Below are positions 4,505 through 28,645 of a DNA stretch of 64,000 nucleotides, piece by piece. Numbering within the stretch: the first letter of the stretch is position 1; every line of letters begins with the position of its first letter. The stretch spans positions 1,861-65,860 of the forward strand of contig JAIUMY010000003.1 of assembly GCA_022565335.1 (NCBI GenBank), written 5' to 3'. This stretch comes from Opitutales bacterium (GTDB lineage Bacteria > Verrucomicrobiota > Verrucomicrobiia > Opitutales > T3Sed10-336). The position numbers and the translations under genes are program-made. The notes beneath the pieces were generated by a model. It did not search any database and was not told where the DNA came from. It was given only the letters and a program-made list of their open reading frames with translations.

Positions 4505-4505
4505 A

Positions 4506-5336: not shown

Positions 5337-5343
5337 AACGATT

Positions 5344-12115: not shown

Positions 12116-12124
12116 AGTAATAGA

Positions 12125-12397
12125 TCAGCGGATTTCAAAACCGCGAAACCCCTTCATTTGTTCCATGGATTTTTTCTCGGTCCGCTGAATATACCCTTCC
12201 ATTTCGGTTTCGATCGCCTGGACAAATTCTTCCACTTCTTTGGGAGAACCCTCCACCTGAAGTTCCACCCGGCCATCGGTAAGATTGCGAACCCAACCGC
12301 ACACCTCAAACCCCTGGGCGATTTGTCGAACGGTGTAGCGAAAACCCACCCCTTGGACCCGTCCCTCAAAAAAAACTTCCCAATGAACTGAACTCAT
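12125..12397 (-). CDS. acyP: Acylphosphatase
   Basis: The 90-aa protein carries the GRVQGVGFRYTV phosphate-binding loop and the GWVRNLTDGRVELQVEG motif. It overlaps fabF by 4 nt. Confidence 0.85.
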   Translation of the reverse strand: MSSVHWEVFFEGRVQGVGFRYTVRQIAQGFEVCGWVRNLTDGRVELQVEGSPKEVEEFVQAIETEMEGYIQRTEKKSMEQMKGFRGFEIR

Positions 12398-14028: not shown

Positions 14029-14236
14029 TTGCGCGCAGGGACATGAAGTCCCCGCTCGCGGTTGAGAAGGGGCGACTATTTCCGTTTTCCGAAGCATTGC
14101 GCACAGGGGCACAAGGCCCCCGTTCGCTGTTTACAAGGGAGGACACGGGTTCGTTTGCTCATGTTCGCCAACCGGTAGGCACAAGGCCACCGTTCGCTGT
14201 TTGCACAAGGGAGGGGGGCTCGTGTCGTTGGCTGTT
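14029..14236. repeat. Three diverged tandem copies of a ~68-70-nt unit in non-coding DNA
   Basis: The units start at about 14029, 14097 and 14167. The core ggcacaaggcccccgttcgctgtttacaagggagg (14108-14142) recurs as ggcacaaggccaccgttcgctgtttgcacaagggagg (14178-14214). The first 35 nt of units A and B match at 27 of 35 positions by hand alignment. Confidence 0.75.
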
Positions 14237-14662
14237 ACCCCAAGCGGGGACCCTGTGCGGAGTTCTTCAAGCCAGGGACGCGTGCCGACCACCTCCTCCG
14301 CGCGGGGACCCCCGATACGCTTCGCTCATTTCCCTTCGGCGGGATTTCGCGAGCTCAATTTGTGGGGCTGCGCGGAACACTCCGATCTCGTATGTCTCTC
14401 CCCGCCTACTCCAGCTTCGCTGGTGGTGTCCCCCGACCTGAAAAATATGCCGGTTCCCGATAAGGGGTTATTTTTTGCGCAAGAAAAAACAGTATTCGCT
14501 CGGAATGCGGGCACTTAATCTGTCAGAATATTTCGCTTTCGAGAAATTTCCTTGGCTCAAAAGCCTTTTTTCCTTTTCACAAAGCCTAAGAAATGAAATT
14601 TTAAGCTTTTTGCCGAAAACCCACTTTATTGATTTCCTTACCCTTTCCCCTTCTTTTATTTC

Positions 14663-15400
14663 ATGCCTGCCAAAAACGAAACCCTGATTGAAGCCATTGA
14701 TGTTGAAAGAGCCTATCCGACCGGAAAGACCGTGGTTTATGCGCTCAAGAAAATCAATTTAAGTGTCTACGCGGGCGAATACATCTCCTTGATGGGTCCC
14801 TCGGGTTCCGGGAAAACGACCTTTTTCAATATGATTGGCGCCCTCGATTTGCCCACCAAGGGGACCATTCGGCTGGGCAACCGGAACCTGCAGGACTTGG
14901 CGCCCGCCGAGTTGGCCTCCCTGCGTTGCGCCAACATCGGCTACATTTTTCAAAATTATAATCTGATTGAGGTGGTTTCGGCTTTGCAGAATGTGGTTCT
15001 GCCAATGCGTTTTCTGGGCCTCACCGAACAGGAGGCCCGGGAAAAGGCCGCCGGGTTGCTCGAAATGGTCGGCTTGGGCGAACGTATGCATCACCTTCCC
15101 GGCGAACTTTCCGGCGGACAGCAACAACGGGTGGCCATTGCCCGCGCCCTCGCCAACGACCCCGACCTCATCCTGGCCGACGAACCCACCGGCAACCTGG
15201 ATTCCAAAACCGCCGTCTCCATTGTCGAACTTTTGAGCAAGCTCAGTGTCGATCGTGGGGTCACCGTAGTTTCTGCTACTCACGACGCCCGCATGTTGAA
15301 TGTTTCCGACCGGGTGGTTTACCTCCGCGACGGTGAGGTCGAGAAGATCGTCAAACGTGAAGACCTGAACATTTCCATCGGCTCCATCGCCGAACACTAA
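14663..15400 (+). CDS. MacB/LolD-type ABC ATPase (first of two in locus)
   Basis: Walker A is GPSGSGKTT, the signature is [14 protein letters not shown], Walker B is [11 protein letters not shown], and the H-loop is ATHD. The 245-aa size is typical of partners of FtsX-type permeases. Confidence 0.9.
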
Positions 15401-15444
15401 ACCCCGACCTATTTTGCTTCTTTTTTCCATACGCACCTGCTGAC

Positions 15445-18354
15445 ATGAGTATTTCCCGCGCCGTAACCATTCTGATCGGATTAGTCCTAATTGTGATCCT
15501 CGCGCCCTTGTCCCAGTTTATGACCATGATGACGGTCAACGCGGACATTGAAACGGCCACTCCGGTGGGTTGGGCTATCGGGATCATCTTCACGCTGTTG
15601 CTGGCGTGGGCCTTTATCCGCTCCATGGCCAAAGTGCAGGCTATTCCGCGACAGAATCTGGTCATCCTTTTCGTCATGCTGACCATCGCCGCACCGGTGA
15701 TGAATCTCGGCTTGGTCCGGACTTTTTACAATGCCAACTCGGCCGCTCTGGATGAGTATTTCTTCCAGGGCAATCCGACCTACCGGACGATTTTTGACAG
15801 CATGAGCGACAGCTGGTTTCCCAAGGTTCCCACCGATGAGGGACTGGCATGGAACCGGGCGGATCGGTTTTTACGGTTTCTAACCGATAATGAGATTATC
15901 CGCGACAGCGACCAGGCCCGGCGCTCCCTGGTCGGGGCCTTGGAAACGGTGGAAGCGGAACTGGTTCGTCGTCAGCGTTTGGAGGAATTGGAAGAACTTC
16001 CCCCGGTAGAATCCATCGGCGACGAGACTTTGGCCGAACTGGTGGAGATAGAGTCCCTGAGTGAACGAATCCCTTACCTGCTTTTTGATGATGCCCGGCG
16101 ACTGCTGGACGATGATTCAGCCGGAATTTTCCCGCACCTTGGTTTGGCGGAAGAGATCGAGGCGCAACAAGAACAACGGGAGGCACGAAGCGAGGAAATC
16201 ACTCCCTTGCTTATAACCGAGCTGTCGGATTATGACGAATTTCTCCTCACCATGGTGGAGGAGTTTCAATTCACCATGGACCCCGCTATGGTGCTGCGGG
16301 TGGATGAGGAATTGAACCGTCTACCCGAGGAAGAAAGAGAGCTTCGCCAGCGGATTGCCGAACAGGAAATCGCCCCGCGTTGGCAGGAATGGCAGGCCCA
16401 GGTCTCGGTGCTTACCGAGGTTGACCGAAGAGAGGTCCGCAATGGTTTGATGGAAGCTTATTTATCGCAGCAAGCCGAACTCTCACGGGCTGAGCGGGAT
16501 GAGATGCTCTCCGGTTTTGCCTTTCGTCTCAGCCGGAGCGAGCGGCGGAGCCTGATTCGCCAAGACGGTTCGGATGAGCCCAATCAAAATATATTTGCCT
16601 TCCGCAACGGGCTCTGGGATGATTCCTCCAGTCGGCAGATGCGGGACCAGGAAAGTTTTTGGAGCAACATGGCTTCGGCCCGCGAGCGAATCCCCTGGGG
16701 ACTCTGGGTTAAACCGATGTTCAACTGGGGTATGCTGTTCCTGGCCATCTTTTTGTTCATGATGTGCCTCGCCGAATATTTCCGGCGAAAATGGGTGGAG
16801 CGGGAAAACCTGGCCTTCCCCTTGGTCGAGATCGCCGACGGGCTGATCCGACACGATTACAAACTGGAAACCGCCGACGATGTTCGGGAACCGGAAAAGC
16901 GGGGCGTTCTCTTTGACCGATTCTTTATTTTTGGCGCCTTTCTCGGGTTTTTAATCCTCTCATTGGAAGCCATCAACCACTATGGCTTGGTCGGTAATGA
17001 TATGCGCATCGTTTTCGATGCCAGCGGGACCCTGTTTACCAGCGGTATATTATCGGAAATTGACAAGGTGGTCTTTGTCTTTTCCCCCATTGTCATCGGC
17101 ATCGCCTTCTTGATCAGTCTTGAGTTGAGCTTTTCCATCTGGATGATCTTTTTCATCTATACCCTGCTGAGCTGGATCATGCGGCTCATGGCCGACGGAG
17201 CCTTCAATACCGGGCTCTACACCGGCTGGGCCGGAGGATCGAACTACCCCTATCCGATGGAGCAATTGCTCGGTGCAGTCGTCTGTTTTACTCTCTTCCT
17301 CCTGATAAAATCCTGGAAAACGAAAAGCCGTCCCAACACCGGAGAAGTCCCGGATCAGTACGTCCCTCCCCGCCTGACCATGGCCGGACTGATTGTTTTA
17401 CCGATTTTCATTTTCATCATGATCTGGAACATCGGGGTCAATAGTCCGTTCGTCATTCTTCTGTTTGGCCTTCTGGTTATGGCGATCACCATCGCGGCGG
17501 CCCGGGTCCGGGCGGAAACGGGTCTCCCCACCCATCATGTTACCTACGATTTCACCAAAATGCCGATGGTCCTCGGCCTAACCAGTGGGATGGGGGCCAA
17601 AAACTACGCCGCGTTCCTGAACATTGTGTTCCTTCCCTGGACCCTGATCTTCCGCAGTTTGCCCCAACAATTGGAAAATATCGAGCTGGCCCGGCGCTAT
17701 AAGTTGCGTTACAGCGTGGTTGCCGTAGCCTCCCTCCTGGCCTTCGTGGTGGCTATCGGCGCCGGTTTATTCAGTTTCCTGATGTTGTCCCACTACTTCG
17801 GCGATGGGATGCAGGGAGCCTCTCTGCGTGAAGGCGCGGCGACCATCAACAATGTCAATATGGCCAAATATCCCCTGTGGGTTGGCCACTTCCAGGGAGA
17901 AGGTTCCCTTGAGATGCACAACACGTTCTCCGGCGTCCATGTCTTTTTCATGGTCGTGGGCTTTGTCGTCATCCTGGCCTTGACCCTCCTGCGGAAATAT
18001 TTCCTCAGCTTTCCCCTGCACCCAATTGGCTATCTGGTCCTCCTTTTCAGCCTCTACTACCACTGGATATCGCCCTACCACAAGGGGGAAGGTTTCACGA
18101 ATGAAGCCTCGCTGGTCTGGGGTGGCGTACTGGTGGCCTGGGGCTTCAAAAAACTGATTATCAAATACGGTGGGATGAATTCCTACAAAGCCGCCAAACC
18201 CTTCTTTATCGGCCTGGTGATCGGGTCCGTCTTCTGTGTCTTCTGCTGGAACATGCTCGATCTACTGGCCATGCTCATGGACCAAAGTGGTTCGGACGCC
18301 AACTTCATCGAACCTTTCCAAAACCACCAATTGTTCAGCCCCCGCTTTTACTAA
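15445..18354 (+). CDS. 969-aa polytopic membrane protein, OPT-superfamily-like, with ~325-aa acidic coiled-coil insertion
   Basis: About 3 N-terminal TM helices are followed by an E/D/R-rich soluble segment (aa ~95-420, e.g. RRQRLEELEELPPVESIGDETLAELVEIESL) and then >10 TM helices. The motif ENLAFPLVEIADGLI and the C-terminal KKLIIKYGG..AKPFFIGLVIG parallel KLPFPLAPIAAEGAI and RKFGKERW..PILAVGFAAG in the 686-aa protein. Confidence 0.6.
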   Translation: MSISRAVTILIGLVLIVILAPLSQFMTMMTVNADIETATPVGWAIGIIFTLLLAWAFIRSMAKVQAIPRQNLVILFVMLTIAAPVMNLGLVRTFYNANSAALDEYFFQGNPTYRTIFDSMSDSWFPKVPTDEGLAWNRADRFLRFLTDNEIIRDSDQARRSLVGALETVEAELVRRQRLEELEELPPVESIGDETLAELVEIESLSERIPYLLFDDARRLLDDDSAGIFPHLGLAEEIEAQQEQREARSEEITPLLITELSDYDEFLLTMVEEFQFTMDPAMVLRVDEELNRLPEEERELRQRIAEQEIAPRWQEWQAQVSVLTEVDRREVRNGLMEAYLSQQAELSRAERDEMLSGFAFRLSRSERRSLIRQDGSDEPNQNIFAFRNGLWDDSSSRQMRDQESFWSNMASARERIPWGLWVKPMFNWGMLFLAIFLFMMCLAEYFRRKWVERENLAFPLVEIADGLIRHDYKLETADDVREPEKRGVLFDRFFIFGAFLGFLILSLEAINHYGLVGNDMRIVFDASGTLFTSGILSEIDKVVFVFSPIVIGIAFLISLELSFSIWMIFFIYTLLSWIMRLMADGAFNTGLYTGWAGGSNYPYPMEQLLGAVVCFTLFLLIKSWKTKSRPNTGEVPDQYVPPRLTMAGLIVLPIFIFIMIWNIGVNSPFVILLFGLLVMAITIAAARVRAETGLPTHHVTYDFTKMPMVLGLTSGMGAKNYAAFLNIVFLPWTLIFRSLPQQLENIELARRYKLRYSVVAVASLLAFVVAIGAGLFSFLMLSHYFGDGMQGASLREGAATINNVNMAKYPLWVGHFQGEGSLEMHNTFSGVHVFFMVVGFVVILALTLLRKYFLSFPLHPIGYLVLLFSLYYHWISPYHKGEGFTNEASLVWGGVLVAWGFKKLIIKYGGMNSYKAAKPFFIGLVIGSVFCVFCWNMLDLLAMLMDQSGSDANFIEPFQNHQLFSPRFY

Positions 18355-18357
18355 GCC

Positions 18358-21300
18358 ATGTCCTTTTCTTTTTCCCGCTTCCTCCCTTCCCTGACCCGCC
18401 AAGCCTTTTTGGTGGCCTTGCTCACCGGGACCGGACTGTCCGCCCCGGGACTCCTCGCCGACCAGAATGCGGACTTCGTCGAGCGACTTTCCCCGGAACG
18501 ACAGAACCAACTTCTCAGCTTCGACCTGTTCGAAAATGCCTCCCTGCGCGAAATCGCCGCGCGTACCCAGGAAGAAACCCTTCGCCCGCTGATCGAGGAA
18601 ATTCTCAGCGTGGACAGCCTCTCGATAGGGGTCCGCGAGGTTGACGAAAATGATCGGGCCGAAATCCATCATCTTCTTCTCGACCACTTGAACAAACTCG
18701 AGCCTTACGGGGTCGAATACGTCGGCTCGCTCACCGGGATTGCCGCCGTTCCGGTTTCGGTGGACCGGCGCCTTGACCCCGACGAGCGCGAAGCCCCCTC
18801 GGCGTTGACCATTGGCGAGGAACAAATCACCGTCCACCCCCTCTGGCCCAACGGTCCGATGCCCAGTCTTGCCCCCAAAGAGGGAATCACCGGAAAACTC
18901 GTCGACATTGGCTCCGGCCGCTGGAGTGATCTGAATGGAAAAGACCTGCGGGGCAATATCGCGGTAATGTCCTTCCGGGGCGGGAACAATTTCGAACGGG
19001 CCTTCTACCTCGGAGCCCGCGCCATCCTGATCGTCGAGGACAATAACGTGGATATGGAAAACGCTGAACGGCTTTTCCGTCACACTCCCCTTCCCTACCC
19101 GCGCTTTTATCTACCCCGCGCCGAGGGCCAGGCATTGTTGGAGCAAATCAACCAATCCGAAAATCCCATCGAAGCAACCCTGAACGGAGGGCAAGTCATT
19201 GAAAACCGGCCCATCGAATCGATCTTCGCCTTTCTCCCCCCCGACGAGGAAAGAACTCTGGAAGTCGGCGAAGATACTCACCTTCGTCTCATTGCCGACC
19301 AATTCGGAGTCTCCACACGGGATCTTCTGCGAGCCAACGATAAGACCTCCCCAAACGTTACCGAGGGAGACGAAATTATCATTCCCGGCCGCACTGATAT
19401 TTTCACCATTCCCGAAGGAGACCTTATCAGTCGTCTGGCGAATCGCTACGGCACGACCCCCGACGATTTCCGGGAGGCCAATGATTGGGACGAGGGTCAA
19501 ACGTTGCAGCCCGGAGACTCCTATCTCGTTCCCAACCGCGAAGACCCCTTCGTTATCACCGTCAATATCGATACCGTCTCGGTGGTTCCCGACCTGCCCC
19601 ACGGTGCCCACCAAGCGAAAAATATCGCTTTTGCCCTGAATACCATGGAACACCTGGCGACCAGTGAAAACAGCTGGCGGCGCCGGGGCATTCTCTTTGC
19701 CTTCATGGACGGCGATACGCAGGGGGGCATCGCCAGCCGGAAGTTGGCGGAGCACTATCAACTCTACCACAATCGTCTGCGTACCGCACACGGCGAAGAT
19801 CTGGCCGCGGAAATCGAAAATTATGAGGGGGCCATGGCCTTCTTCGATCCGGATCGTTCCATACAGGATATGGACCGCGAATATGCCATGTGGTTTGCTA
19901 ATGATTGGATCGTTCCGCGCCTCGAGGATGTCCGTATTGACATTGGGGAAAAACGGGTCGCCCTCATTAACGAACTGCTGGAAATGCCCGATCCGGATCC
20001 GGGACCAGGGGAAATTCGCCATCCGGACCTGGAGAAAATGTCCCCTGCGGAAATCGAAGCACTCCGCGAAGAGCGCCGCGAACTGCGACAGCGTCAGGCT
20101 TATCAGGAAAATCGTCGGGACCGGTTACAGGAACTGCGTTTACAAACAATTGAGCAACGACGCCTGAGTTTCCAAGACCGTCTGGAAAGTTTCCATGATA
20201 TCATTACGGAGAACCCGGACACCAATTTCCCGGACCGGATAGCTGATGCGATGAAGGGTGAATCCTTTGCCGCTCTTTTCGGGGAAACAGATATGACCTT
20301 CGAGTCTCTGAAGGAGCGTTTCCTGGTGGAGATGGAGGAAGAGAAGGAGGCCCAAGCCTACCTGCTGAACAACTTGGATTTGGCCGAAAAGCTCTATCCC
20401 ATCCTGCATCCCGCGGACGAAGAAGACCCCCGTTTGGGATGGTTCCTCGACTTATCCAGCGACAGCCGCACCATCGGCCTCCCAGCTCTGGACAGTTCGG
20501 ATTTCCGGGGCCGGCTCCCCGGTGACGGCGCAAATCATGGACGGGATTTGGAAAACTCCTTCCAGTACGCTCTCTCTCTCGGCCACATCCGCGCGGGTTG
20601 GGAAGAACAATGGAGCTTTTACCGCCGGGAGGATTCCCTGGACTTCCCCGTTCTCCCTGCCCGCCAAGCCCCCATCTATGGAGATTTCTGGGCCGCCCTC
20701 CGAGTCGGTGTTCTCCCTATGGGGAATTTTAATGACCGCCTGTCCCGCTTGGACACCCCGCACGACACCCTCGAAAATATCAATTTTGAGAACTTTTCCA
20801 TTGTCGCGCGGAATGCCCTTTTCCTGATGCAACTCGGGGCGGAAAGCCCTACCGACTCCAGCGGTCCCTCCCGCATGAGCCGCCCGCGCTTTACCCGCAT
20901 CGGGGGACAGACCGTGGAGGCCAGCATCCGCTCCGCCCTCGACGCCGAAGACCCGGTGGGAGGAACCATCGTCCATTATCCGGGAATCCGCACCCAGGAA
21001 GAGCGCAACAACCACAACACCAACGCCTATCGTGGAACCCGTAGAAGTTTTCAACGGGTCAGTATGCTCAACGGACGATACCGCGTCCCCTTGGAAAACA
21101 TCGGTTTTTCCAACATGATGAACCATATTTATGCCTATCATCTGAACCGGGATCGGGCTATTTTTGATAAAATTGCCACCCAAGGTCTTTTGGGTGCCGC
21201 CACCGAAGCCCAGACACCCGCTTTCCAGATGATCGAAGGCCGCGAGGCGGAGAAAAAAATCATTCTGGTGGATGTCGCCCCTCTGGTCTTTTTTGCGGGC

Positions 21301-24039
21301 AGCGAACCGCATGATTATCAAATTTTAGGAAGTGGAAACCACGACCTCCGGGTTCTTGAAGCGGTCACTCGAGGCAACCCGCGGGAATATGCGCTGGAAA
21401 ACCCGGTGCGCCATTTTGCCGAACTCGAAACCCTCGGCAACATTATCTACATGAACGAAGGGGGCCGAGCTTCCATCCTGTACCAGCGAACCGGCCAGAA
21501 TATGTTTATGCTGGTCGGGCGTTTGGTCGAAGACGAGCGCTTTGGCGGCACCCGTCGGGGGGAAGGTATTCGGATTGGCCCCACCGATGACGGAGAGGAG
21601 AATACTTTTTACCCCTTTACCGCCATGCGCGTCGCCGAACAGATGCTGGACTTGGCCATTGACCGGCAGGACACCTATGCGGACTTCGGGATTCGGTCCC
21701 AATCGATCGCCCGCGCCATCGCCCGCAGCCAGGAAAAATTAAATGAGGCCTATGCCTTCTACGAAGAAAAAGAATGGCAAAAGGCCGAAGGCGCAGCCCG
21801 GGAGTCCTGGGGGATGCTGGTCAAATTCTACCCCCGCATCCTCGGACTGGGCCGCGAGGCGGTTTTCTCTGTTATCATGATCATGGCGATCCTGTTGCCA
21901 GCTTCCTATTTTCTCGAAAAACTTCTCATTGGCAGCAAAGCCATCATCGCCCAGATTTTTGGCACCAGTACCCTCTTCGCCCTGGGGACGGTCTTTTTAT
22001 GGCTGTTCCATCCGGCCTTCTCCATCGCCGTATCGCCCTTTATTGTGGTGATTTCTTTTACCATGATCCTGATGTCGATCATCGTGTTGACCATCTGTTA
22101 TCAGCGATTCGAGACCCTGGTGCGTCGGGCCCGAATTGCCGGCGGTGAGGTCGAAGGCGAGGAGATCAGTTTGGTGAGTTCTCTGGGCACCGCCCTTTCC
22201 ATGGGGGTTTCCAATCTGAAAAAACGCCCTTCCCGGACGTTCCTCACCTCCCTTACGGTAACCGTTCTAACCTTCTCCATTGTCGCCTTCGTCTCGGTGA
22301 CCGGCGAAGAAACCGTCTCCGAGCGTTCCGTTTCGCTCGACCACAATGTCGAAGGACGCACCATTGAAGCCATGGAGCCAGCCTTTGAGGGCATGCTCTT
22401 TCGGAGTTTCAACTGGCAATCGCTCACCTCCTCCTTCGTCGATGCTGTTGAAACGGAATTCGGTTCCCATCTCCCCACTACCACCCGCGCCTGGTACATT
22501 GAGCGGGAAGGAGGCAATAATGCCGCCGTTGAGGGAGCGAACCAAGTGGAAATACGCTTGGGTGACCGCCAGCACATTTCCACGGGTATCATGGTCTTCG
22601 AACCCAACGAAACCGAATTCAGTGGCCTGCACCGGGCCGTATCCAACGCCGAATGGTTCCGGCCCGCCCAATGGGAAGAAGGCATCGCCCCGGATCGTAA
22701 TGTCATCATCCTCCCCGACAACGCCGCCCAGCGCCTGGGAATTACCGAAGAGCACATTTTCGACGAAAACGGTCAACGCCGTCCCGTCGGGGAATTGCCC
22801 TCGGTTATCATGCAAAACCAGCAATGGTCGGTCATCGGCATTCTTGACGTGGAAAAAGCCAATCGTATCCGCGATGTGAACGGCCGCAGCCTTGCCATGG
22901 TGGACTACGTCCGCTCCAACATGACCGGTAATGCCCCCGGCGAACTGATCAACGAAGATCCGGTTTCCTACCACTTTGACTGGGAACGTCTGGTTATCGT
23001 TCCCATGGCCGCGCGCACCGATGTCAACGCCCGCCTGCGCTCAGTGGTCGTACAGTTCCAGGAAGATACCGATGTCGAACAGATCTACCATGATGTAGCC
23101 CTTCGTTTGAACCGACCCTTCTTCGCTCATCACGATGAAAATCTAAGCTTCATTACCACCCGTACCCAACGTGACATCGGAGGCATCGCCAAAATCATCG
23201 TTCCCATCATTCTCTGCGTGCTCATTGTTCTCAACACCATGATGGGCACCGTGGACGAACGTCGAGGGGAGGTAGGTATGCTCGGCGCGGTCGGTCTATC
23301 GCCGAAACAGATATCCTTCCTTCTCCTCTCGGAATCGGCGGTGTACTCGGTCATCGGCATTCTCTTCGGGATGTTCATAGGCCTTCTCTTTGCCAACAGT
23401 ATTCCCTTCTTCAATGAAGTTCTGGGGGTCGCCTTCCTCAGCGAGTTGTCCTTCAACTTCACTTCGGTGATTTCCATGGGATTGGCCCTGGGAACCGGCG
23501 TGATCGTTATGATCGCCACCCTGATCCCCGCCAAACGGGCCGCCACTCTGGCCGCTCCGAGCGGGATGTCCAACTGGGAATTGCCGGAGCCTGCAGACGA
23601 TAAGAACATTTACTTTGAACTGCCCTTCACCCTCACCCGGGGCAATGCAGTGGGGATGTCCGCCTTTTTCCGGCAGTTTCTGCTCAATCATACCGACGCC
23701 AGTTCGGAAGACTTCACCTGCCGCGATATTCGTCTGGAAAACCGGGTGACCGAAGAGGGGGGGCCTGCCCTGCGCATTGAATCCTCGATGTGGCTGAGTC
23801 CCTACGACCTTGACGTGGCCCAGCACTTTATCATGGATATCGTTCCCACCAAGAACCCCGGAGTTTACGCGGTGGAATTGATTCTGGAGCGTACCTCGGG
23901 TGCCGAGGATGCTTGGATCCGCATCAATTACCGCTTTTTGAACAATGTCCGACACCAATTCCTGCTTTGGCGGAACCTTTCCCCTGAAGAGCGCAACAAC
24001 TTCATCAAACGCGGTGCTGAACTGCTGCAAGACGACTGA
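18358..24039 (+). CDS. 1893-aa fusion protein: signal peptide, PA-like domain, 2x LysM, degenerate M28-like module, coiled coil, unknown ~470-aa region, TM cluster, FtsX/MacB-type permease module, ~165-aa C-terminal domain
   Basis: The gene is a single uninterrupted ORF that starts 3 nt after the previous stop. The PA-like segment is GKLVDIGSGRWSDLNGKDLRGNIAVMSFRGGNNFERAFYLGARAILIVED. The FtsX TM1 context is SNLKKRPSRTFLTSLTVTVLTFSIVAF. The FtsX core is VLNTMMGTVDERRGEVGMLGAVGLSPKQISFLLLSESAVYSVIGILFGMFIGL. Confidence 0.8.
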   Translation: MSFSFSRFLPSLTRQAFLVALLTGTGLSAPGLLADQNADFVERLSPERQNQLLSFDLFENASLREIAARTQEETLRPLIEEILSVDSLSIGVREVDENDRAEIHHLLLDHLNKLEPYGVEYVGSLTGIAAVPVSVDRRLDPDEREAPSALTIGEEQITVHPLWPNGPMPSLAPKEGITGKLVDIGSGRWSDLNGKDLRGNIAVMSFRGGNNFERAFYLGARAILIVEDNNVDMENAERLFRHTPLPYPRFYLPRAEGQALLEQINQSENPIEATLNGGQVIENRPIESIFAFLPPDEERTLEVGEDTHLRLIADQFGVSTRDLLRANDKTSPNVTEGDEIIIPGRTDIFTIPEGDLISRLANRYGTTPDDFREANDWDEGQTLQPGDSYLVPNREDPFVITVNIDTVSVVPDLPHGAHQAKNIAFALNTMEHLATSENSWRRRGILFAFMDGDTQGGIASRKLAEHYQLYHNRLRTAHGEDLAAEIENYEGAMAFFDPDRSIQDMDREYAMWFANDWIVPRLEDVRIDIGEKRVALINELLEMPDPDPGPGEIRHPDLEKMSPAEIEALREERRELRQRQAYQENRRDRLQELRLQTIEQRRLSFQDRLESFHDIITENPDTNFPDRIADAMKGESFAALFGETDMTFESLKERFLVEMEEEKEAQAYLLNNLDLAEKLYPILHPADEEDPRLGWFLDLSSDSRTIGLPALDSSDFRGRLPGDGANHGRDLENSFQYALSLGHIRAGWEEQWSFYRREDSLDFPVLPARQAPIYGDFWAALRVGVLPMGNFNDRLSRLDTPHDTLENINFENFSIVARNALFLMQLGAESPTDSSGPSRMSRPRFTRIGGQTVEASIRSALDAEDPVGGTIVHYPGIRTQEERNNHNTNAYRGTRRSFQRVSMLNGRYRVPLENIGFSNMMNHIYAYHLNRDRAIFDKIATQGLLGAATEAQTPAFQMIEGREAEKKIILVDVAPLVFFAGSEPHDYQILGSGNHDLRVLEAVTRGNPREYALENPVRHFAELETLGNIIYMNEGGRASILYQRTGQNMFMLVGRLVEDERFGGTRRGEGIRIGPTDDGEENTFYPFTAMRVAEQMLDLAIDRQDTYADFGIRSQSIARAIARSQEKLNEAYAFYEEKEWQKAEGAARESWGMLVKFYPRILGLGREAVFSVIMIMAILLPASYFLEKLLIGSKAIIAQIFGTSTLFALGTVFLWLFHPAFSIAVSPFIVVISFTMILMSIIVLTICYQRFETLVRRARIAGGEVEGEEISLVSSLGTALSMGVSNLKKRPSRTFLTSLTVTVLTFSIVAFVSVTGEETVSERSVSLDHNVEGRTIEAMEPAFEGMLFRSFNWQSLTSSFVDAVETEFGSHLPTTTRAWYIEREGGNNAAVEGANQVEIRLGDRQHISTGIMVFEPNETEFSGLHRAVSNAEWFRPAQWEEGIAPDRNVIILPDNAAQRLGITEEHIFDENGQRRPVGELPSVIMQNQQWSVIGILDVEKANRIRDVNGRSLAMVDYVRSNMTGNAPGELINEDPVSYHFDWERLVIVPMAARTDVNARLRSVVVQFQEDTDVEQIYHDVALRLNRPFFAHHDENLSFITTRTQRDIGGIAKIIVPIILCVLIVLNTMMGTVDERRGEVGMLGAVGLSPKQISFLLLSESAVYSVIGILFGMFIGLLFANSIPFFNEVLGVAFLSELSFNFTSVISMGLALGTGVIVMIATLIPAKRAATLAAPSGMSNWELPEPADDKNIYFELPFTLTRGNAVGMSAFFRQFLLNHTDASSEDFTCRDIRLENRVTEEGGPALRIESSMWLSPYDLDVAQHFIMDIVPTKNPGVYAVELILERTSGAEDAWIRINYRFLNNVRHQFLLWRNLSPEERNNFIKRGAELLQDD
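19258..19533 (+). other. Two consecutive LysM-like (peptidoglycan-binding) modules inside the 1893-aa ORF
   Basis: The first module, aa ~301-343, reads LEVGEDTHLRLIADQFGVSTRDLLRANDKTSPNVTEGDEIIIP. The second, aa ~348-392, reads FTIPEGDLISRLANRYGTTPDDFREANDWDEGQTLQPGDSYLVP. Both fit the LysM pattern x-V-x-x-GD-T/L-x-x-IA-x-x-y-g-x(4-6)-l-x-x-N-x(6-10)-G-x-x-l-x-iP. Confidence 0.7.
23173..23538 (+). other. FtsX-family 3-TM core (TM2-TM4) of the 1893-aa protein
   Basis: This segment covers aa ~1606-1727. Its helix-loop pattern and the E-R-x-x-E-v-G-x-L-x-A-x-G motif match FtsX-domain permeases. It is preceded by a ~290-aa extracytoplasmic segment between TM1 and TM2, as in MacB/LolC. Confidence 0.75.
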
Positions 24040-24050
24040 TTTAGACCACC

Positions 24051-26111
24051 ATGGCTGACCAATCTCCACCTCCTGAAGCTCCCAAAAAGACAGGGATCGA
24101 GAACGAAGAGTTCTTTGATGCCAAGTTCTCCATTGAGGCCATCCAGAACGAGCCGTATGAAGACGGCTTCACCTGGCGGACCATTGTCGGAGCGTTTTTC
24201 ATTTCCTTCGTCATGTTGCCGGGCCTCATCTTCATGGGCTTGATGATCGGCTACGACATGGGGACCGCCGCCGAGTGGGTGACCATCATCCTCTTTGTCG
24301 AAGTCGCCCGCCGCTCCTTCCTGACCCTGCGTAAACAGGAGCTGTATATGCTCAAATACACCGCTGGTCAGCTCACCCACATGGCGGGGGGGATATCCAT
24401 CGGAGGGGGGATTTTCGGGATGCTGGTCTATTTCCGCTACCTGCGGAACTCCGATGCTTTTCACACCTTCGGCATTGCCCACCAAGTTCCGGATTGGGTC
24501 GCGCCATACGGCGATGCCGCCTACAATGTTTTCACCCATCCGGTCTGGTATCCGGCGATTATCGTCACTATCGCCTCCATGACCCTTTCCAAGCTCACTC
24601 AGTTGAGTTTGGGCTTCCTGGCCTACAAAGCCACCGCCGATGTGGAGAAACTTCCCTTCCCGCTCGCGCCGATTGCCGCGGAAGGGGCTATCGCCCTGGC
24701 CGAAACCAGTCAGGACAAAAACAAACGGGGCTACCGCCAATACTGCTTCTCCCTGGGAGCGATCATCGGCGCGGTATTCGGGATCATTTACGTCGGGGTG
24801 CCCACCTTGAGTAATGCCTTCCTCGACCAGACCCTGACCATTATTCCGATCCCCTTCCTGGATTTAACGACCACCATGGAACGGTATCTGCCGACGGCCC
24901 CAATCGGGATTACTTTGAATCTGGGATTGATCTTCTTCGGCTTCGTGCTGCCCTGGCGGGTCTGTATGGGCATGGTCGCCAGTACCTTTCTGTTCCAGCT
25001 TATTCTGAATCCTTTTGTCTTCTACCCGCTAGGCTGGCTCCCCACCTGGACCCCCGGCAAATCGGCCATTCAAACGAACGTTTCCAACGCCCTCGACCTC
25101 TACCTCTCCATGGGGATCGGGATCGCCTTTGCCATTCTCTGCGTTGGCCTCTACGGCATGGGCAAATCCTGGATGAAGTACCGGAACAATAAGGATCAGG
25201 ATGAGGACGGCTTTGATATTAAGGCCTTCTGGCGTCAGGACAAACCCCGGGGAGACGTCAAAACCTGGCTGGCCATTGGCGTCTATTCAGGCGTTTCGCT
25301 TATTTACGTCATTTTCTGTAACTACCTCGTCAACGGCAACCTCCCTCCCGATGTGGAACCCTTCCCCATTTACTGGTTGGTTCTCTTTGCCTACGTCTGG
25401 ACCCCGATGAACACCTACATCAACGCCCGGATGTCCGGTATTGCCGGTCAGCACGCCGGGATTCCCTTCGTCACCGAGGGTGCCATCTTCGCCTCCCAGC
25501 ACCGCGGCGTGGCCATCTGGTTCGCCCCGCTGCCCATTGCCAACTATGGTAAGTTTGCCGACGAGCTCCGGGAAACCCAGCTGACCCGGACGAAGTTCAC
25601 CTCGATCCTCAAAGCGGAACTATTGGCCTTCCCCTTGTTGATCATCGCCTCCTTTATCTTCTGGAGCTATATCGTCACCCTTGGCGATATTCCCTCCGAC
25701 CGCTATCCCTTCGTGGAACAATTCTGGCCGCAGTATGCCACCATGCAGGGGGTCTGGGCTTCCTCCATGCAGGAGGGGCAGACCCTCCTCTTCCAGTCGT
25801 TGAAACTGGAAGTCATTATCACTAGCTTCATCGGATCCATTGGGCTCTTCAGCGGCTTCAGCGCAGCGGGACTGAGCCACCAGTATATCTACGGAGGCAT
25901 TACCACGGTCACCCAATTGCCCCACATGGCGATTTTGATTTTCGTCGGCGCCCTTCTCGGCCGCTTCTTCTTCATGCGGAAGTTCGGCAAGGAACGCTGG
26001 ACCAATTACACCCCTATTCTGGCCGTCGGCTTCGCCGCCGGAATGGGGCTCACGGGGATGCTTAGCATCGCCATAAACTTCCTCTGGGCCTCCATCGGGG
26101 CCTCCTTCTAA
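24051..26111 (+). CDS. 686-aa polytopic membrane protein, OPT-superfamily-like (paralogue of the 969-aa protein)
   Basis: It has about 14-16 predicted TM helices. FTWRTIVGAFFISFVMLPGLIFMGLMIG, KLPFPLAPIAAEGAIALAE and the C-terminal G-rich helices resemble oligopeptide-transporter (OPT) family hallmarks as I recall them. Confidence 0.55.
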   Translation: MADQSPPPEAPKKTGIENEEFFDAKFSIEAIQNEPYEDGFTWRTIVGAFFISFVMLPGLIFMGLMIGYDMGTAAEWVTIILFVEVARRSFLTLRKQELYMLKYTAGQLTHMAGGISIGGGIFGMLVYFRYLRNSDAFHTFGIAHQVPDWVAPYGDAAYNVFTHPVWYPAIIVTIASMTLSKLTQLSLGFLAYKATADVEKLPFPLAPIAAEGAIALAETSQDKNKRGYRQYCFSLGAIIGAVFGIIYVGVPTLSNAFLDQTLTIIPIPFLDLTTTMERYLPTAPIGITLNLGLIFFGFVLPWRVCMGMVASTFLFQLILNPFVFYPLGWLPTWTPGKSAIQTNVSNALDLYLSMGIGIAFAILCVGLYGMGKSWMKYRNNKDQDEDGFDIKAFWRQDKPRGDVKTWLAIGVYSGVSLIYVIFCNYLVNGNLPPDVEPFPIYWLVLFAYVWTPMNTYINARMSGIAGQHAGIPFVTEGAIFASQHRGVAIWFAPLPIANYGKFADELRETQLTRTKFTSILKAELLAFPLLIIASFIFWSYIVTLGDIPSDRYPFVEQFWPQYATMQGVWASSMQEGQTLLFQSLKLEVIITSFIGSIGLFSGFSAAGLSHQYIYGGITTVTQLPHMAILIFVGALLGRFFFMRKFGKERWTNYTPILAVGFAAGMGLTGMLSIAINFLWASIGASF

Positions 26112-26135
26112 GCTTCCTAATTTCCCTTTTTACCC

Positions 26136-26723
26136 ATGGCCCACAAAGAATGGCATATTGATCGTCTGAAGATGAAACCCGGCCTGGTTTGGCAGATGGC
26201 CGTGAACAGCCTGAAAGTCCGGATCAGCCGGACCACGCTGACGCTCCTCACCATCGCCACCTCCAGCGCCTTCCTCATCTACCTACTCACCCTCCCCCGG
26301 TCCGATGATCTGGCCGATCAGCAAACCTGGTATCTGATGCTCGGCCTTTCCGTTTTGGTAAGTGCTGCCGGGGTCTTGAATACCATGCTTATGTCGGTCA
26401 GTCAGCGCTACCGCGAAATCGGCACCATGAAGTGCCTTGGGGCCCTCGATAAGTTTGTCCTTTTTACCGTGATGGTCGAATCGGCCATCCTCGGCTTTGT
26501 CGGTGCGGTCATCGGGGTTATTGTCGGGTTGACCATCTCCATCTTGCTCGGCCTGCTGGAATACGGCTTTAGCCTCTTTCAATACCTCCAATTCGACTGG
26601 ATTCTGCTGAAAATCCTTGCCGCCTTCGCGCTGGGTATCTTTTTAACCACCTTCGGCTCTTCCATCCCTGCGGTTATCGCTTCCCGCATGCCGCCGATGG
26701 ACGCCATGAGAGGAGAAAAATAA
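26136..26723 (+). CDS. Minimal (195 aa) FtsX-family permease lacking an extracytoplasmic domain
   Basis: TM1 (TLTLLTIATSSAFLIYLLTL) is separated from TM2 by only ~11 aa (PRSDDLADQQT). The FtsX core motif is LNTMLMSVSQRYREIGTMKCLGALDKFVLFTVMVESAILGFVGAVIGVIVG. A TAATG overlap links it to the next ATPase. Confidence 0.75.
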   Translation: MAHKEWHIDRLKMKPGLVWQMAVNSLKVRISRTTLTLLTIATSSAFLIYLLTLPRSDDLADQQTWYLMLGLSVLVSAAGVLNTMLMSVSQRYREIGTMKCLGALDKFVLFTVMVESAILGFVGAVIGVIVGLTISILLGLLEYGFSLFQYLQFDWILLKILAAFALGIFLTTFGSSIPAVIASRMPPMDAMRGEK

Positions 26724-27535
26724 TGAGTTCCTTGCATACCAAGACCATACCCGCCTCTGACATGCCCGACCGCCCCGCCTTCAATTGGCTGGATGATACG
26801 GGCGAAGATGCTGACCTCACCGTCATGACCCGGGACGTGACGAAAATCTACCAGATGGGGGAAGAAAAAATCCATGCCCTCGGCGGAGTCAATATCAAGA
26901 TCGCCACTGGCGAATACATCTCCATCATGGGGCCCTCCGGTTCCGGGAAAACCACTTTGTTCAACGTCATTGGCGGATTGACCAAGCCTACCAGCGGTAA
27001 TGTTTTTATCGATGAAATCGATGTCGCCCAGTTGGATGCCAACGAATTGGCGTGGTTACGGTGCCGGAAGATCGGCTACATTTTCCAAAGCTACAATATC
27101 GTCAAGGTGCTTACCGCCCTGGAAAACGTCACCCTGCCTATGCTCTTTGCCGGCGTCCCCCCCGATGAAGCGCAGGACCGCGCCGTTTACATCCTTGGGC
27201 GGGTCGGCTTGGGTGATCGGGTTCTGCACACCCCAAAGGAACTCTCCGGTGGACAGCAACAACGCGTGGCCATTGCCCGCGCTTTTGCCAACAAGCCCTC
27301 CATCATTCTCGCCGATGAACCCACCGCCAATTTGGACCTCAAAACCGGGGAGGAAATCATCGAACTGATGCGCGAAATGAACCAGGAGGAAGGCGTGACC
27401 GTGGTCTGTTCGACGCACGATCACAAGATGCTGAATATTTCCGACCGAATCGCCTGGATGCAGGACGGTCTTCTCAAGAAAATCGCCAAACGGGACGAAG
27501 TGGATATCGAAATCTCCCAACTGGCGGAAAAATAA
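26723..27535 (+). CDS. MacB/LolD-type ABC ATPase (second of two in locus), with ~35-aa N-terminal extension
   Basis: Walker A is GPSGSGKTT, the signature is [14 protein letters not shown], Walker B is ILADEPTANLD, and the H-loop is STHD. Confidence 0.9.
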   Translation: MSSLHTKTIPASDMPDRPAFNWLDDTGEDADLTVMTRDVTKIYQMGEEKIHALGGVNIKIATGEYISIMGPSGSGKTTLFNVIGGLTKPTSGNVFIDEIDVAQLDANELAWLRCRKIGYIFQSYNIVKVLTALENVTLPMLFAGVPPDEAQDRAVYILGRVGLGDRVLHTPKELSGGQQQRVAIARAFANKPSIILADEPTANLDLKTGEEIIELMREMNQEEGVTVVCSTHDHKMLNISDRIAWMQDGLLKKIAKRDEVDIEISQLAEK

Positions 27536-27543
27536 CCGCTGCC

Positions 27544-28530
27544 TTGACTGTCTGGCTTGACCCTTCCTCCCTTTCCTGGACGGTTCTCGCCCTGCTGGTT
27601 CTGGTGGGCTTTATCGGACTAACCTTCGGCGGAGACTTTCTTTGCCGGGGAGCGGTTGGCCTTTCCCGCAAACTGGGGGTTTCCCCCTTGGTTATTGGCC
27701 TGACGGTAGTTTCCATCGCTACTTCAATGCCGGAACTTTTCACCTCCGTGGCCGCCTCTTTGCGTGACGCCCAAGGACTGGTCATCGGAAATATCGTGGG
27801 CAGTAATATCAGCAATCTTGGCCTGATCCTGGGTCTTTCCGCCCTCTTTTGCCCTTTGGTCGTTCAGGTTAGAGTCATTCGCCGGGAAATGCCCGCATTG
27901 GTCCTCATTACTCTCCTTTTTTGCGCTTTGGCCTATTGGGGGGGCGGATTCACCCGGCTTGATGGATTACTCCTTTTGCTCTGCTTGGTCGGCTACCTCT
28001 TTTATTTTTTTATCGAATACCGTCAGCAACCTGACCTCAACGCAGAGATCGCCGAAGAGGAAACTCCTACCCAGTCGACACCGATATTCTTTCTTCTCCT
28101 CGGGGGTACGGTTTTTCTCACCATCGGTGCCGATGCTTTGGTCATCGGAGCCAGTGAAATGGCTTTGCGATGGGGAGTCTCCGAGGTGTTGATTGGCCTC
28201 AGTCTGGTGGCCATCGGCACCAGTCTTCCCGAACTTGCCACCTCTGTCGCGGCCGCTTTGCGCAAACAAATGGATATCTGCGTGGGGAATATTATTGGGT
28301 CCAATGTTTTCAATTTGGTCTTGATTGGCGGAGTTACGGCCTTGGTTTTCCCGTTTCCCGTAGAAGCTCTCTTACTTCGTCTGGAAATACCGATAATGCT
28401 GGGACTCACCCTGCTTTTGTGGCCCTTTGTCATCACCGGCAAAATCATCAGCCGCCGCGAGGGCGCAATCCTGCTTCTCCTGTTCACCGGTTTTCTCCTC
28501 GCCGCTTTCTTTTTTCGTTTGGGGGGCTGA
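27544..28530 (+). CDS. Ca2+/Na+ antiporter, CaCA family (YrbG-like)
   Basis: It has two internal repeats with alpha-repeat motifs, GLTVVSIATSMPELFTS and GLSLVAIGTSLPELATS, each followed by GNI(V/I)GSN. The TTG start lies 8 nt after the preceding stop. Confidence 0.85.
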   Translation: MTVWLDPSSLSWTVLALLVLVGFIGLTFGGDFLCRGAVGLSRKLGVSPLVIGLTVVSIATSMPELFTSVAASLRDAQGLVIGNIVGSNISNLGLILGLSALFCPLVVQVRVIRREMPALVLITLLFCALAYWGGGFTRLDGLLLLLCLVGYLFYFFIEYRQQPDLNAEIAEEETPTQSTPIFFLLLGGTVFLTIGADALVIGASEMALRWGVSEVLIGLSLVAIGTSLPELATSVAAALRKQMDICVGNIIGSNVFNLVLIGGVTALVFPFPVEALLLRLEIPIMLGLTLLLWPFVITGKIISRREGAILLLLFTGFLLAAFFFRLGG

Positions 28531-28645
28531 AATAATCCCGCGACTGAGACTCTTCCGGTAGGCTGAAAATAAAGTTATCTTTTCTAATCTGTTAGTTTTT
28601 TTATTGTTTTTTAAAGGACCTATCCAATACTATAAATTATCCTTT

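Follow-up and report, generated by a model that had tools for sequence, protein, structure and literature searches.

A conserved six-gene operon of PVC bacteria predicted to encode an asymmetric type VII ABC system with two OPT-fold membrane proteins

Introduction

To our knowledge only a few ATP-binding cassette (ABC) systems of type VII are understood, namely MacAB-TolC, LolCDE, FtsEX, Bce and YbbAP-TesA, and each of them showed a distinct way in which ATP hydrolysis in the cytoplasm can drive work beyond the membrane. OPT proteins are known as solitary proton-coupled carriers and are not known to function beside an ABC system. Here we describe a six-gene cluster in a 64,000-nt stretch of DNA (the window) from an Opitutales bacterium (GCA_022565335.1, contig JAIUMY010000003.1, positions 1,861-65,860 of the forward strand), where the genes for two MacB/LolD-type ATPases and two very unequal FtsX proteins stand together with those for two polytopic proteins that we assign to the OPT superfamily. 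The system is widespread in bacteria of the Planctomycetes-Verrucomicrobia-Chlamydiae (PVC) group, which dominate polymer breakdown in sediments of saline sites and soda lakes and have an envelope biology that is little understood.

A first-pass annotation of the window had suggested that the six products could form one heteromeric machine, for which it knew no described counterpart. Our preferred reading, for which we see the balance as about even, is that the operon encodes a single asymmetric type VII (MacB/Lol/FtsEX-class) ABC mechanotransducer working with two OPT-fold membrane proteins.

Results and Discussion

Six closely spaced genes form one conserved operon

The open reading frame (ORF) listing of the window contains seven same-strand ORFs from 14663 to 28530, in which NBD stands for nucleotide-binding domain and TM for transmembrane.

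14663-15400 (+), NBD1, 245 aa: ABC ATPase of the MacB/LolD type, catalytic motifs all intact
15445-18354 (+), polytopic protein with DUF6785 and DUF6784, 969 aa: predicted remote member of the OPT superfamily
18358-24039 (+), giant FtsX subunit, 1893 aa
24051-26111 (+), P4, polytopic protein with a modelled OPT fold, 686 aa
26136-26723 (+), minimal FtsX subunit (miniFtsX), 195 aa: four TM helices, no periplasmic domain
26723-27535 (+), NBD2, 270 aa: ABC ATPase of the MacB/LolD type
27544-28530 (+), CaCA antiporter, 328 aa, TTG start

Direct reading of the junctions, among them AAATAATGAGT, gave gaps in order of 44, 3, 11 and 24 nt, a 1-nt TAATG overlap of the NBD2 start with the miniFtsX stop, and 8 nt before the antiporter. 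Together with the ORF coordinates this bears out the gene number, strand and spacing given for the six genes in the first-pass annotation. The base composition across the region is even. A scan for sigma-70 promoters and terminators returned counts at or below the shuffled expectation, which says little for a verrucomicrobial genome.

Homologous loci were collected with a one-genome-per-species scan of ~185,579 species representatives, which gave 67 loci, each in a metagenome-assembled genome. Every ORF in them was searched with the window proteins and the gene order was then tabulated; the starts in this table are longest-ORF starts, so the large negative gaps found in it are artefacts. Opitutales, Puniceicoccaceae, Oceanipulchritudo, Phycisphaerae, Victivallales and further PVC bins, many of them named in the style of soda-lake or hypersaline samples, supplied the close relatives. 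More distant relatives, at 35-41% identity, were found in Kiritimatiellae, Latescibacterota, Tepidisphaeraceae, other Planctomycetota, Armatimonadota, Abditibacteriales and Caldisericota.

Co-conservation of the genes, on which the first-pass annotation had staked its idea, was found in about 40 Verrucomicrobiota, Phycisphaerae and other PVC genomes, which carry the six-gene set. The order NBD1-DUF6785-giant-P4 is present in 29 of the 30 close-clade loci with at least 9.3 kb of upstream sequence, and NBD1 is the first cluster gene in 29/30 loci. Downstream, P4 is followed by miniFtsX in 27 of the 34 close-clade loci with at least 1.5 kb of sequence, and 25 of those also have NBD2. In five of the seven exceptions NBD2 lies directly upstream of NBD1, and miniFtsX and NBD2 shift jointly as a unit in the permuted loci. 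An Oceanipulchritudo contig has the cyclically permuted order miniFtsX-NBD2-NBD1-DUF6785-giant-P4, with all six genes still adjacent, and on a Phycisphaerae contig the six genes are flanked by unrelated genes. Because every gene has homologues at hundreds of bits and the gene order recurs in dozens of species, the cluster is not a product of chance; the six genes are one real conserved operon. The spacings of -1 to 44 nt, the recurring order, the unrelated flanks in Phycisphaerae and the adjacency of all six in the permuted form argue for one functional unit.

The tightest association is that of the giant with P4. In 62 of 63 loci the next gene downstream of the giant is P4, mostly across a junction of -4 to +22 nt and often with a 4-nt overlap. 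The pair is kept in clades where the rest of the cluster is not nearby (L043, L046, L054 and L065 among them), and a still more distant giant of the M28-FtsX type also has a P4 homologue next downstream. The giant FtsX protein and the OPT-fold P4 are the invariant core of the system, and their adjacency even in those clades suggests that the two are coupled.

A few loci deviate in other ways. No giant was detectable in L015, and the giant and P4 are fragmented in L041, a Verrucomicrobia metagenome-assembled genome (4447-12059), where the giant is spread over four ORFs and P4 over two, by pseudogene decay or assembly frameshifts. Directly upstream of the permuted Oceanipulchritudo cluster (L073:3764-4821) are an extracytoplasmic function (ECF) sigma factor and a 153-aa protein without a Pfam match. 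The latter is possibly an anti-sigma factor, which hints that the cluster is regulated by envelope stress in that genome.

Two complete ATPases and two unequal FtsX subunits

The first and last genes, called intact MacB/LolD-type NBDs in the first-pass annotation, indeed encode such proteins. NBD1 and NBD2 match Pfam ABC_tran (6.6e-33 and 1.5e-33) and are 53% identical to each other. Walker A, Q-loop, LSGGQ, Walker B (ILADE, with the Glu), D-loop and H-switch (THD) are present in both, so each has the motif-intact MacB/LolD/FtsE-class NBD that characterizes type VII ABC systems. Their top NCBIfam matches were MacB, LolD, DevA and FtsE, every one of them under the equivalog cut-off. The MacB equivalog NF007826 scored 218 vs 966, and for LolCDE the scores were 26.7 vs 473 (LolC), 24.9 vs 362 (lolCE) and 215.9-225.6 vs 307.75 (LolD).

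The giant protein is present in NCBI, in exactly this form, as 'LysM peptidoglycan-binding domain-containing protein [Opitutales bacterium]', and full-length homologues of 1750-2150 aa are known from more than 40 species. Distant relatives of 1500-1740 aa have Pfam matches to Peptidase_M28, PA (weak), MacB_PCD and FtsX. Its parts are the following.

18460-21837 (+), periplasmic ectodomain (aa 35-1160), predicted from the AlphaFold model, Foldseek and PDB profile search
19252-19530 (+), two LysM modules (aa ~299-391), Pfam LysM 1.1e-10 in two stretches, between the PA and M28-like parts
19531-19797 (+), N-terminal half of the M28-like core (aa 392-480), nicastrin-like, zinc ligands apparently replaced
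21838-22095 (+), three extra TM helices (aa ~1161-1246), predicted by hydropathy, highly conserved in the alignment
22243-23556 (+), MacB-type FtsX module (aa ~1296-1733): TM1, a periplasmic core of ~290 aa, TM2-4
23557-24039 (+), cytoplasmic C-terminal domain (~160 aa), many columns invariant in all giants, distant ones included

Hydropathy placed a signal-peptide-like stretch at the N-terminus, a TM cluster at aa 1161-1246, TM1 of the FtsX module at 1296-1314 and TM2-4 at 1607-1733. Three helices are assigned between the ectodomain and the FtsX module because a consistent topology needs an odd number there. The predicted topology is then self-consistent, with the ectodomain outside, three TM helices, a cytoplasmic linker, FtsX TM1, the periplasmic core, TM2-4 and a cytoplasmic tail. 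Pfam FtsX matched aa 1615-1730 (1.8e-14, 54.2 bits vs a cut-off of 25.5). In a PDB profile search the best match of the FtsX module was YtrF (7e-13), followed by LolC (1e-10) and MacB (7e-9), with LolF also matched. The interval of ~290 aa between TM1 and TM2 is assigned to a MacB-type core; MacB_PCD itself was matched only in the homologue P0230, and the MacB and LolF alignments span only part of the interval. The cytoplasmic C-terminal domain has neither a Pfam nor a PDB sequence match and on its sequence appears to be a new domain; the TM bundle and the beta-rich region of the ectodomain also have no Pfam match.

MiniFtsX matched Pfam FtsX at aa 67-187 (4.9e-19, 69 bits vs a cut-off of 25.5) and no other domain, and ~10 residues separate its TM1 from TM2, leaving a large periplasmic domain clearly missing. 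It shares 26% identity with the FtsX module of the giant (E 3e-9). The first-pass description of a 1893-aa protein with an FtsX module and a 195-aa FtsX protein lacking an ectodomain therefore holds, and the four-TM FtsX-type domain of type VII systems is present in both. The type VII identity of the system follows from the Pfam FtsX matches of the two subunits, the PDB matches to YtrF, LolC, LolF and MacB, and the MacB_PCD match in a homologue.

The giant carries a receptor-like ectodomain with LysM modules

Profile searches for LysM, PA and M28, which the first-pass annotation had proposed, located all three in the giant: LysM directly by Pfam, and PA and M28 through the Pfam matches of distant homologues, the PDB profile search and the ectodomain model. 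The AlphaFold model (pLDDT 89.5, pTM 0.89) consists of an N-terminal helical part, a PA domain, the two LysM modules, an M28-like fold that a long helical insert divides, a region rich in beta structure and a stalk of three helices. Foldseek matched it to PA-M28 aminopeptidases (2ek8 at 3e-12, and BSAP), the transferrin receptor (TfR) and glutamate carboxypeptidase II (GCPII), with E-values of 3e-12 to 1e-7, in agreement with an M28 fold holding a PA insert. The PDB profile search found LysM proteins (7e-17), a PA-containing aminopeptidase (1.7e-10), nicastrin (5e-6) and nicalin (8e-6). With a sub-profile of the M28 core (aa 392-480) the best matches were nicastrin (1.6e-8) and nicalin (1e-7), which came before the active aminopeptidases (leucyl aminopeptidase 2e-7), and the core has a GAES-type motif in common with nicastrin and nicalin.

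At the aligned zinc-ligand positions the first His is replaced by N, P or Y, the bridging Asp by Q, S or V, and the Glu-Glu pair by D-T or other residues. This mapping uses alignment offsets and, in part, what we take to be the residue numbering of the Aeromonas aminopeptidase. The zinc ligands are thus apparently lost in the giant, and because the mapped positions carry other residues, the M28-like module is probably a non-catalytic binding domain. The LysM hidden Markov model scored 41.7 bits vs a cut-off of 20.9, and two beta-alpha-alpha-beta units are visible in the model. The LysM pair is an insert restricted to the PVC clade and is missing from the distant giants.

Two LysM modules next to a degenerate hydrolase-like fold bring to mind an FtsEX-like regulator of cell-wall hydrolysis, in which the giant, with a built-in EnvC/PcsB-like adaptor (inactive M28 plus LysM), would switch on a peptidoglycan hydrolase during growth or division while the OPT-fold proteins import the released peptides. 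FtsEX operates in such a way with EnvC, PcsB and CwlO (PMC7668044, PMC5061712), and one giant homologue carries the JGI annotation 'MepM/NlpD'. However, the FtsEX equivalog scores fell far short (FtsE 204.7 and 197.1 vs 264.85; FtsX_Gneg 25.6 vs 255), the distant clade is without LysM, and a hydrolase gene is absent from the cluster. Moreover, only 67 of the ~185,579 species representatives carry the system, which for that reason is no core part of the divisome. We regard the FtsEX-like explanation as very unlikely.

The two polytopic proteins belong to the OPT superfamily

The first-pass annotation described the 969-aa and 686-aa proteins as paralogous and OPT-like. The OPT link stood up, and the relation between the two turned out to be a remote one. 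The 969-aa protein matched Pfam DUF6785 (PF20581, 1e-52, 179.8 bits vs 25) and DUF6784 (PF20580, 4.6e-17, 62.5 bits vs 26.4), as did all 28 of its aligned homologues, and BLASTP gave no similarity between it and P4 (E 0.7). P4 itself has no Pfam or NCBIfam match, although an identical protein is named 'OPT/YSL family transporter [Opitutales bacterium]' in NCBI. Pfam OPT (PF03169) was matched by neither window protein, even at E<=1, but by one of 29 close P4 homologues (1.3e-8) and by several more remote relatives, with values up to 1.3e-14 along the full length.

An AlphaFold model of P4 from a 29-sequence alignment (pLDDT 71.8, pTM 0.75) was compared with the PDB with Foldseek, and matched the barley transporter Yellow Stripe 1 (HvYS1, 7wst_A) with E 8.4e-10, probability 1.00 and TM-scores of 0.56/0.62, whereas the next PDB matches had TM-scores of ~0.1. 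The model thus points to the three-dimensional fold of the OPT/YSL family; a PDB sequence search with the P4 profile returned nothing. The relation to the DUF6785 protein was examined with hhalign. Small alignments of P4 and DUF6785 gave a probability of only 10.8%, and enriched profiles, made from sequences in the fetched loci, were needed. With these, the P4 and DUF6785 families aligned at E 1.2e-9 and 96.3% probability, in 603 columns that extend across both proteins. A subfamily of 51 members, ~630-aa proteins headed by one that matches Pfam OPT, aligned with P4 at 100% (E 5e-176) and with DUF6785 at 99.8% (E 1e-28). In reversed-profile controls the DUF6785 comparisons stayed at or below 1.2%, and the OPT subfamily against P4 reached no more than 11.6% (E 0.0026), vs 100% and E 6e-121 for the real comparison. 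On the strength of the HvYS1 match of P4 and these profile links with their reversed controls, we assign the 969-aa and 686-aa proteins to the OPT superfamily as mutual remote homologues and not close paralogues, and the DUF6785 protein is by hhalign predicted to have the OPT fold as well.

The extra residues of the DUF6785 protein fall within one of its loops, where the hhalign alignment to P4 has a single gap.

15730-16689 (+), charged alpha-helical insert of ~320 aa (aa ~96-415) of the DUF6785 protein

The insert is specific to the PVC clade and missing from the DUF6785 forms of ~650 aa; its only PDB matches were coiled-coil or ApoA-I-type noise, and by the positive-inside rule it is probably periplasmic. 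The idea that DUF6785 is invariably tied to this system was rejected, as a short DUF6785 protein also sits in an unrelated sulfatase context. A search of 1.84 billion representatives with the P4 profile yielded 945 clusters (50% identity), of which 337 had E<=1e-30; in this clustered set the whole PVC clade of P4 is one representative. Some P4 relatives have a large insert near profile position ~570, with a PDZ domain (P0263) or two-component-regulator/beta-propeller repeats (P0245, P0252), which suggests a ligand-binding domain grafted onto the transporter fold.

By sequence identity P4 is the most conserved component. It is 57-71% identical between Opitutales and Phycisphaerae, compared with ~40-47% for the giant and DUF6785 proteins of the same contigs, and this reflects either unusually strong constraint or transfer of the cluster between PVC phyla. 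These values bear on the explanation that the proteins are linked in function without forming a complex. The OPT-fold proteins would then be ordinary proton-coupled importers of peptides or metal chelates, and the ABC/FtsX part would act separately in the periplasm, e.g. in releasing or presenting substrate from the wall, within a shared pathway such as the recycling of peptidoglycan peptides. OPT/YSL proteins are established secondary carriers and P4 matches one of them, many of the ~630-aa P4 relatives look like stand-alone OPT proteins, and the short DUF6785 in its unrelated context points the same way. A mere pathway link fits poorly, however, with giant-P4 junctions that are extremely tight, often with a 4-nt overlap, in 62/63 loci across phyla. 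A constraint from a partner is also suggested for P4, because its conservation exceeds that of the giant and DUF6785. We consider a link without a complex unlikely.

Distant clades carry one ATPase gene for two FtsX genes

In Latescibacterota, Tepidisphaeraceae and other Planctomycetota the clusters have two FtsX genes and one NBD gene, the latter beside the small FtsX. In order, their genes encode a DUF6785 protein (~650 aa, no insert), a protein with a signal peptide, TPR and TM segment, a giant without LysM, P4, a protein of ~290 aa, one resembling PqqD, a small FtsX and the only NBD; in Tepidisphaeraceae the DUF6785 gene is placed after P4. Three of these genes, conserved in the distant clades, are additional to the set of the window.

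L044:4348-5061, 12063-12947 and 12984-13361, extra genes of the distant clades, also in L049, L051, L061, L052 and L067

They encode a protein with a signal peptide, TPR and C-terminal TM segment (~237 aa), a cytoplasmic protein without a Pfam match (~290 aa) and a PqqD-like protein (~125 aa). No counterparts of the TPR, ~290-aa and PqqD-like proteins were found in the window, even as fused domains of the giant.

The distant arrangement, two FtsX genes with one NBD gene, is that of LolCDE by analogy and speaks for a single motor common to the giant and the small FtsX. Both NBDs of the window are catalytically complete by motif, consistent with the same sharing there, and in the window's clade the second NBD seems to have arisen by later duplication.

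These clusters also speak to the explanation that the operon holds two independent ABC systems which are merely co-transcribed, one made of NBD1 and a homodimer of the giant (with DUF6785) and the other of NBD2 and a homodimer of miniFtsX (with P4). The gene order can be read as mirror-image triads, NBD-polytopic-FtsX and polytopic-FtsX-NBD, miniFtsX and NBD2 relocate as one block in the permuted loci, and the Ytr operon sets a precedent, as YtrB2CD and YtrE2F2 are predicted to be separate (PMC11466899, PMC8060467). P4 nevertheless stays with the giant when the miniFtsX-NBD2 block moves, and on that account lies outside any second triad. In addition, only one NBD gene accompanies the two FtsX genes of the distant clades, the giant is never found with an NBD gene of its own, and a homodimer of an FtsX protein without a periplasmic domain would have no obvious output. 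Two separate systems therefore seem to us quite improbable.

The PqqD-like gene raises the question of a peptide substrate of another kind. It is conserved just upstream of the small FtsX in the Latescibacterota, Planctomycetota and Tepidisphaeraceae clusters, and if it bound a modified peptide, similar to a ribosomally synthesized and post-translationally modified peptide (RiPP), the ABC/FtsX part could expel that peptide or give resistance to it in the manner of BceAB or MacB. Peptides are handled by MacB- and Bce-type systems (PMC5985334, PMC11466899). Against this, none of the clusters examined has a gene for a precursor peptide or modifying enzyme, and the PqqD-like gene is missing from the window and its whole clade. 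Export of or immunity to such a peptide is in our estimate highly improbable.

Genes around the cluster

The CaCA antiporter starts 8 nt after NBD2 and may be co-transcribed with the cluster in this genome. It was considered as a seventh member and rejected, with no homologue next to the cluster in any of the 67 loci. It is followed by a gene for an AraC-type regulator with a periplasmic-binding-protein-like sensor domain (27544-29797 together with the antiporter), which never recurs beside the cluster elsewhere. In the 1-kb gap before NBD1 is a 132-aa ORF (14043-14441, +) without a Pfam match, which is not upstream of the cluster in the other genomes examined.

Further upstream are a FabF-like ketoacyl synthase (12394-13650, -) and two unrelated ABC-2-type pairs of an ATPase and an ABC-2 permease (7400-9351, +; 10363-12115, -). 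A 1105-aa protein without a Pfam match (window 1187-6012, -) adjoins two genes with prokaryotic N-terminal methylation motifs (pseudopilin-like), and the region may belong to a gene cluster of the type II secretion or pilus-like kind. On the other side, a 979-aa ORF (36727-39666, +) has no Pfam match.

No gene for a membrane-fusion protein, outer-membrane factor or substrate-binding protein was found in the operon, as the first-pass annotation had noted, nor among the neighbouring ORFs scanned, which are part of the window's ORFs. Domains of membrane-fusion adaptors or outer-membrane ducts were likewise found in none of the six products, the scanned neighbours or the Phycisphaerae operon.

A possible mechanism

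In the single asymmetric mechanotransducer that we prefer, a heterodimer of NBD1 and NBD2 would sit under a heterodimer of FtsX subunits, one half being the giant and the other the 195-aa protein without an outer domain. The FtsX pairing would be LolCDE-like, with the one-sided asymmetry of BceB, i.e. a split version of the BceB geometry. Binding and hydrolysis of ATP would shift the MacB-type periplasmic core of the giant, and this motion would shift the peptidoglycan-tethered receptor module, made of LysM and a PA/M28 pocket apparently without metal ligands. The receptor may capture or release a peptide-type envelope ligand, such as a stem peptide of peptidoglycan or some other peptide or protein end in the periplasm, which would be passed to the adjacent OPT-fold proteins in the inner membrane or would gate them. 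A peptide-type ligand seems to us most likely, since the giant has an M28/PA pocket and LysM modules, some P4 relatives have PDZ inserts and the distant clusters encode a PqqD-like protein. The idea of the first-pass annotation withstood the three checks set for it, on co-conservation, on the relatedness and OPT likeness of the polytopic proteins and on a match to a characterized operon. Its single heteromeric machine is indirectly supported by the distant clades, where two FtsX genes go with one NBD gene; that the products assemble physically, that the OPT-fold proteins are recruited and that the role lies in the envelope rather than with a solute is conjectural.

Several points weigh against this mechanotransducer. 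All homologues are from metagenome-assembled genomes and the system is known here from sequence alone. OPT proteins are known as secondary carriers coupled to protons, for which no ABC partner is required. Confidence in the P4 model is only moderate, and the apparent loss of the M28 zinc ligands depends in part on the residue numbering assumed for the aminopeptidase. Some distant genomes have no NBD or small FtsX within 10 kb of the giant-P4 pair, and with LysM missing in the distant clade, tethering to peptidoglycan is not universal. Finally, two NBDs in one operon can mean two transporters, as in ytrBCDEF of Bacillus subtilis, where YtrB2CD and YtrE2F2 are predicted as separate (PMC11466899).

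If the parts do form one complex, an ABC motor could power the OPT-fold proteins or control their gating, and DUF6785/DUF6784 and the large unannotated OPT-like family (945 clusters) would gain a first functional context. A bolder reading, which is tentative and on balance doubtful, is that of a new class of envelope machine. A type VII ABC motor would here be physically coupled to the OPT-fold proteins, a wall-tethered, FtsX-fused receptor resembling nicastrin and TfR would select a peptide or protein end, and ATP-driven motion would load or gate an OPT-fold channel. Were this true, an OPT system coupled to ATP would be known for the first time, and bacteria would have a counterpart to the complexes made of an inactive M28 receptor and a polytopic partner.

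Comparison with known systems

The first-pass annotation knew no described system of this architecture, and we found no characterized operon or paper that corresponds to it; full-text literature searches returned no description of the system or of DUF6785/DUF6784. Several described systems share parts with it. LolCDE is similar in having two different FtsX-type subunits on one NBD dimer (as predicted here), in the LolC match of the giant and in the absence of a fusion or outer-membrane partner gene from the operon. LolC and LolE are however of similar size, each with a periplasmic domain, whereas here a 1893-aa protein is paired with a subunit without one, and OPT-fold partners are absent from LolCDE. 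BceAB is an asymmetric type VII system whose two FtsX-like bundles have one extracellular domain between them (PMC11466899), but BceB is one 10-TM polypeptide on an NBD homodimer that serves antimicrobial-peptide sensing. In the window the bundles are encoded by separate genes, the ectodomain is of the PA/M28/LysM type and there are two NBD paralogues.

FtsEX with EnvC, PcsB or CwlO is a type VII mechanotransmitter that acts on peptidoglycan via a degenerate hydrolase-like adaptor, which may be compared with the LysM modules and apparently inactive hydrolase fold of the giant. There the adaptor is a separate LytM- or CHAP-type protein, FtsX is small and OPT-fold partners are lacking. YtrBCDEF of B. 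subtilis has two NBDs, one MacB_PCD plus FtsX protein (YtrF) and two more polytopic proteins, and is linked to cell-wall homeostasis (PMC8060467). It differs in that YtrC and YtrD, which are permeases of the ABC-2 type, are predicted to make up a separate transporter together with YtrB (PMC11466899); in their place the window has OPT-fold proteins, and it has two FtsX genes. MacAB-TolC shares the MacB-type NBD and FtsX domain and the probable MacB-type periplasmic core, but in the window a MacA-like adaptor and a TolC-like gene are absent and the NBD is not fused to the permease.

Outside the ABC systems, the OPT/YSL family (TC 2.A.67; barley Yellow Stripe 1, PDB 7wst/7wsr) is related through the modelled fold of P4, the Pfam OPT matches of its relatives and the profile link of DUF6785, although the window proteins miss the OPT profile and identity to HvYS1 is ~15%. 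The ectodomain resembles nicastrin and nicalin in sequence, and TfR and GCPII in fold; like nicastrin, nicalin and TfR, which are inactive PA-M28 ectodomains, it is membrane-anchored next to polytopic partners and appears non-catalytic. Those are, however, eukaryotic proteins with a single-pass anchor, whereas the module here is fused to an ABC permease with LysM inserts, and common descent beyond the M28 family is not implied. None of MacAB-TolC, LolCDE, FtsEX, Bce and YbbAP-TesA combines an extremely asymmetric pair of FtsX proteins with a nicastrin-like, LysM-anchored receptor that apparently has no catalytic metal site, a new cytoplasmic domain and two OPT-superfamily neighbours. The system is thus a type VII ABC system with unprecedented partners and geometry.

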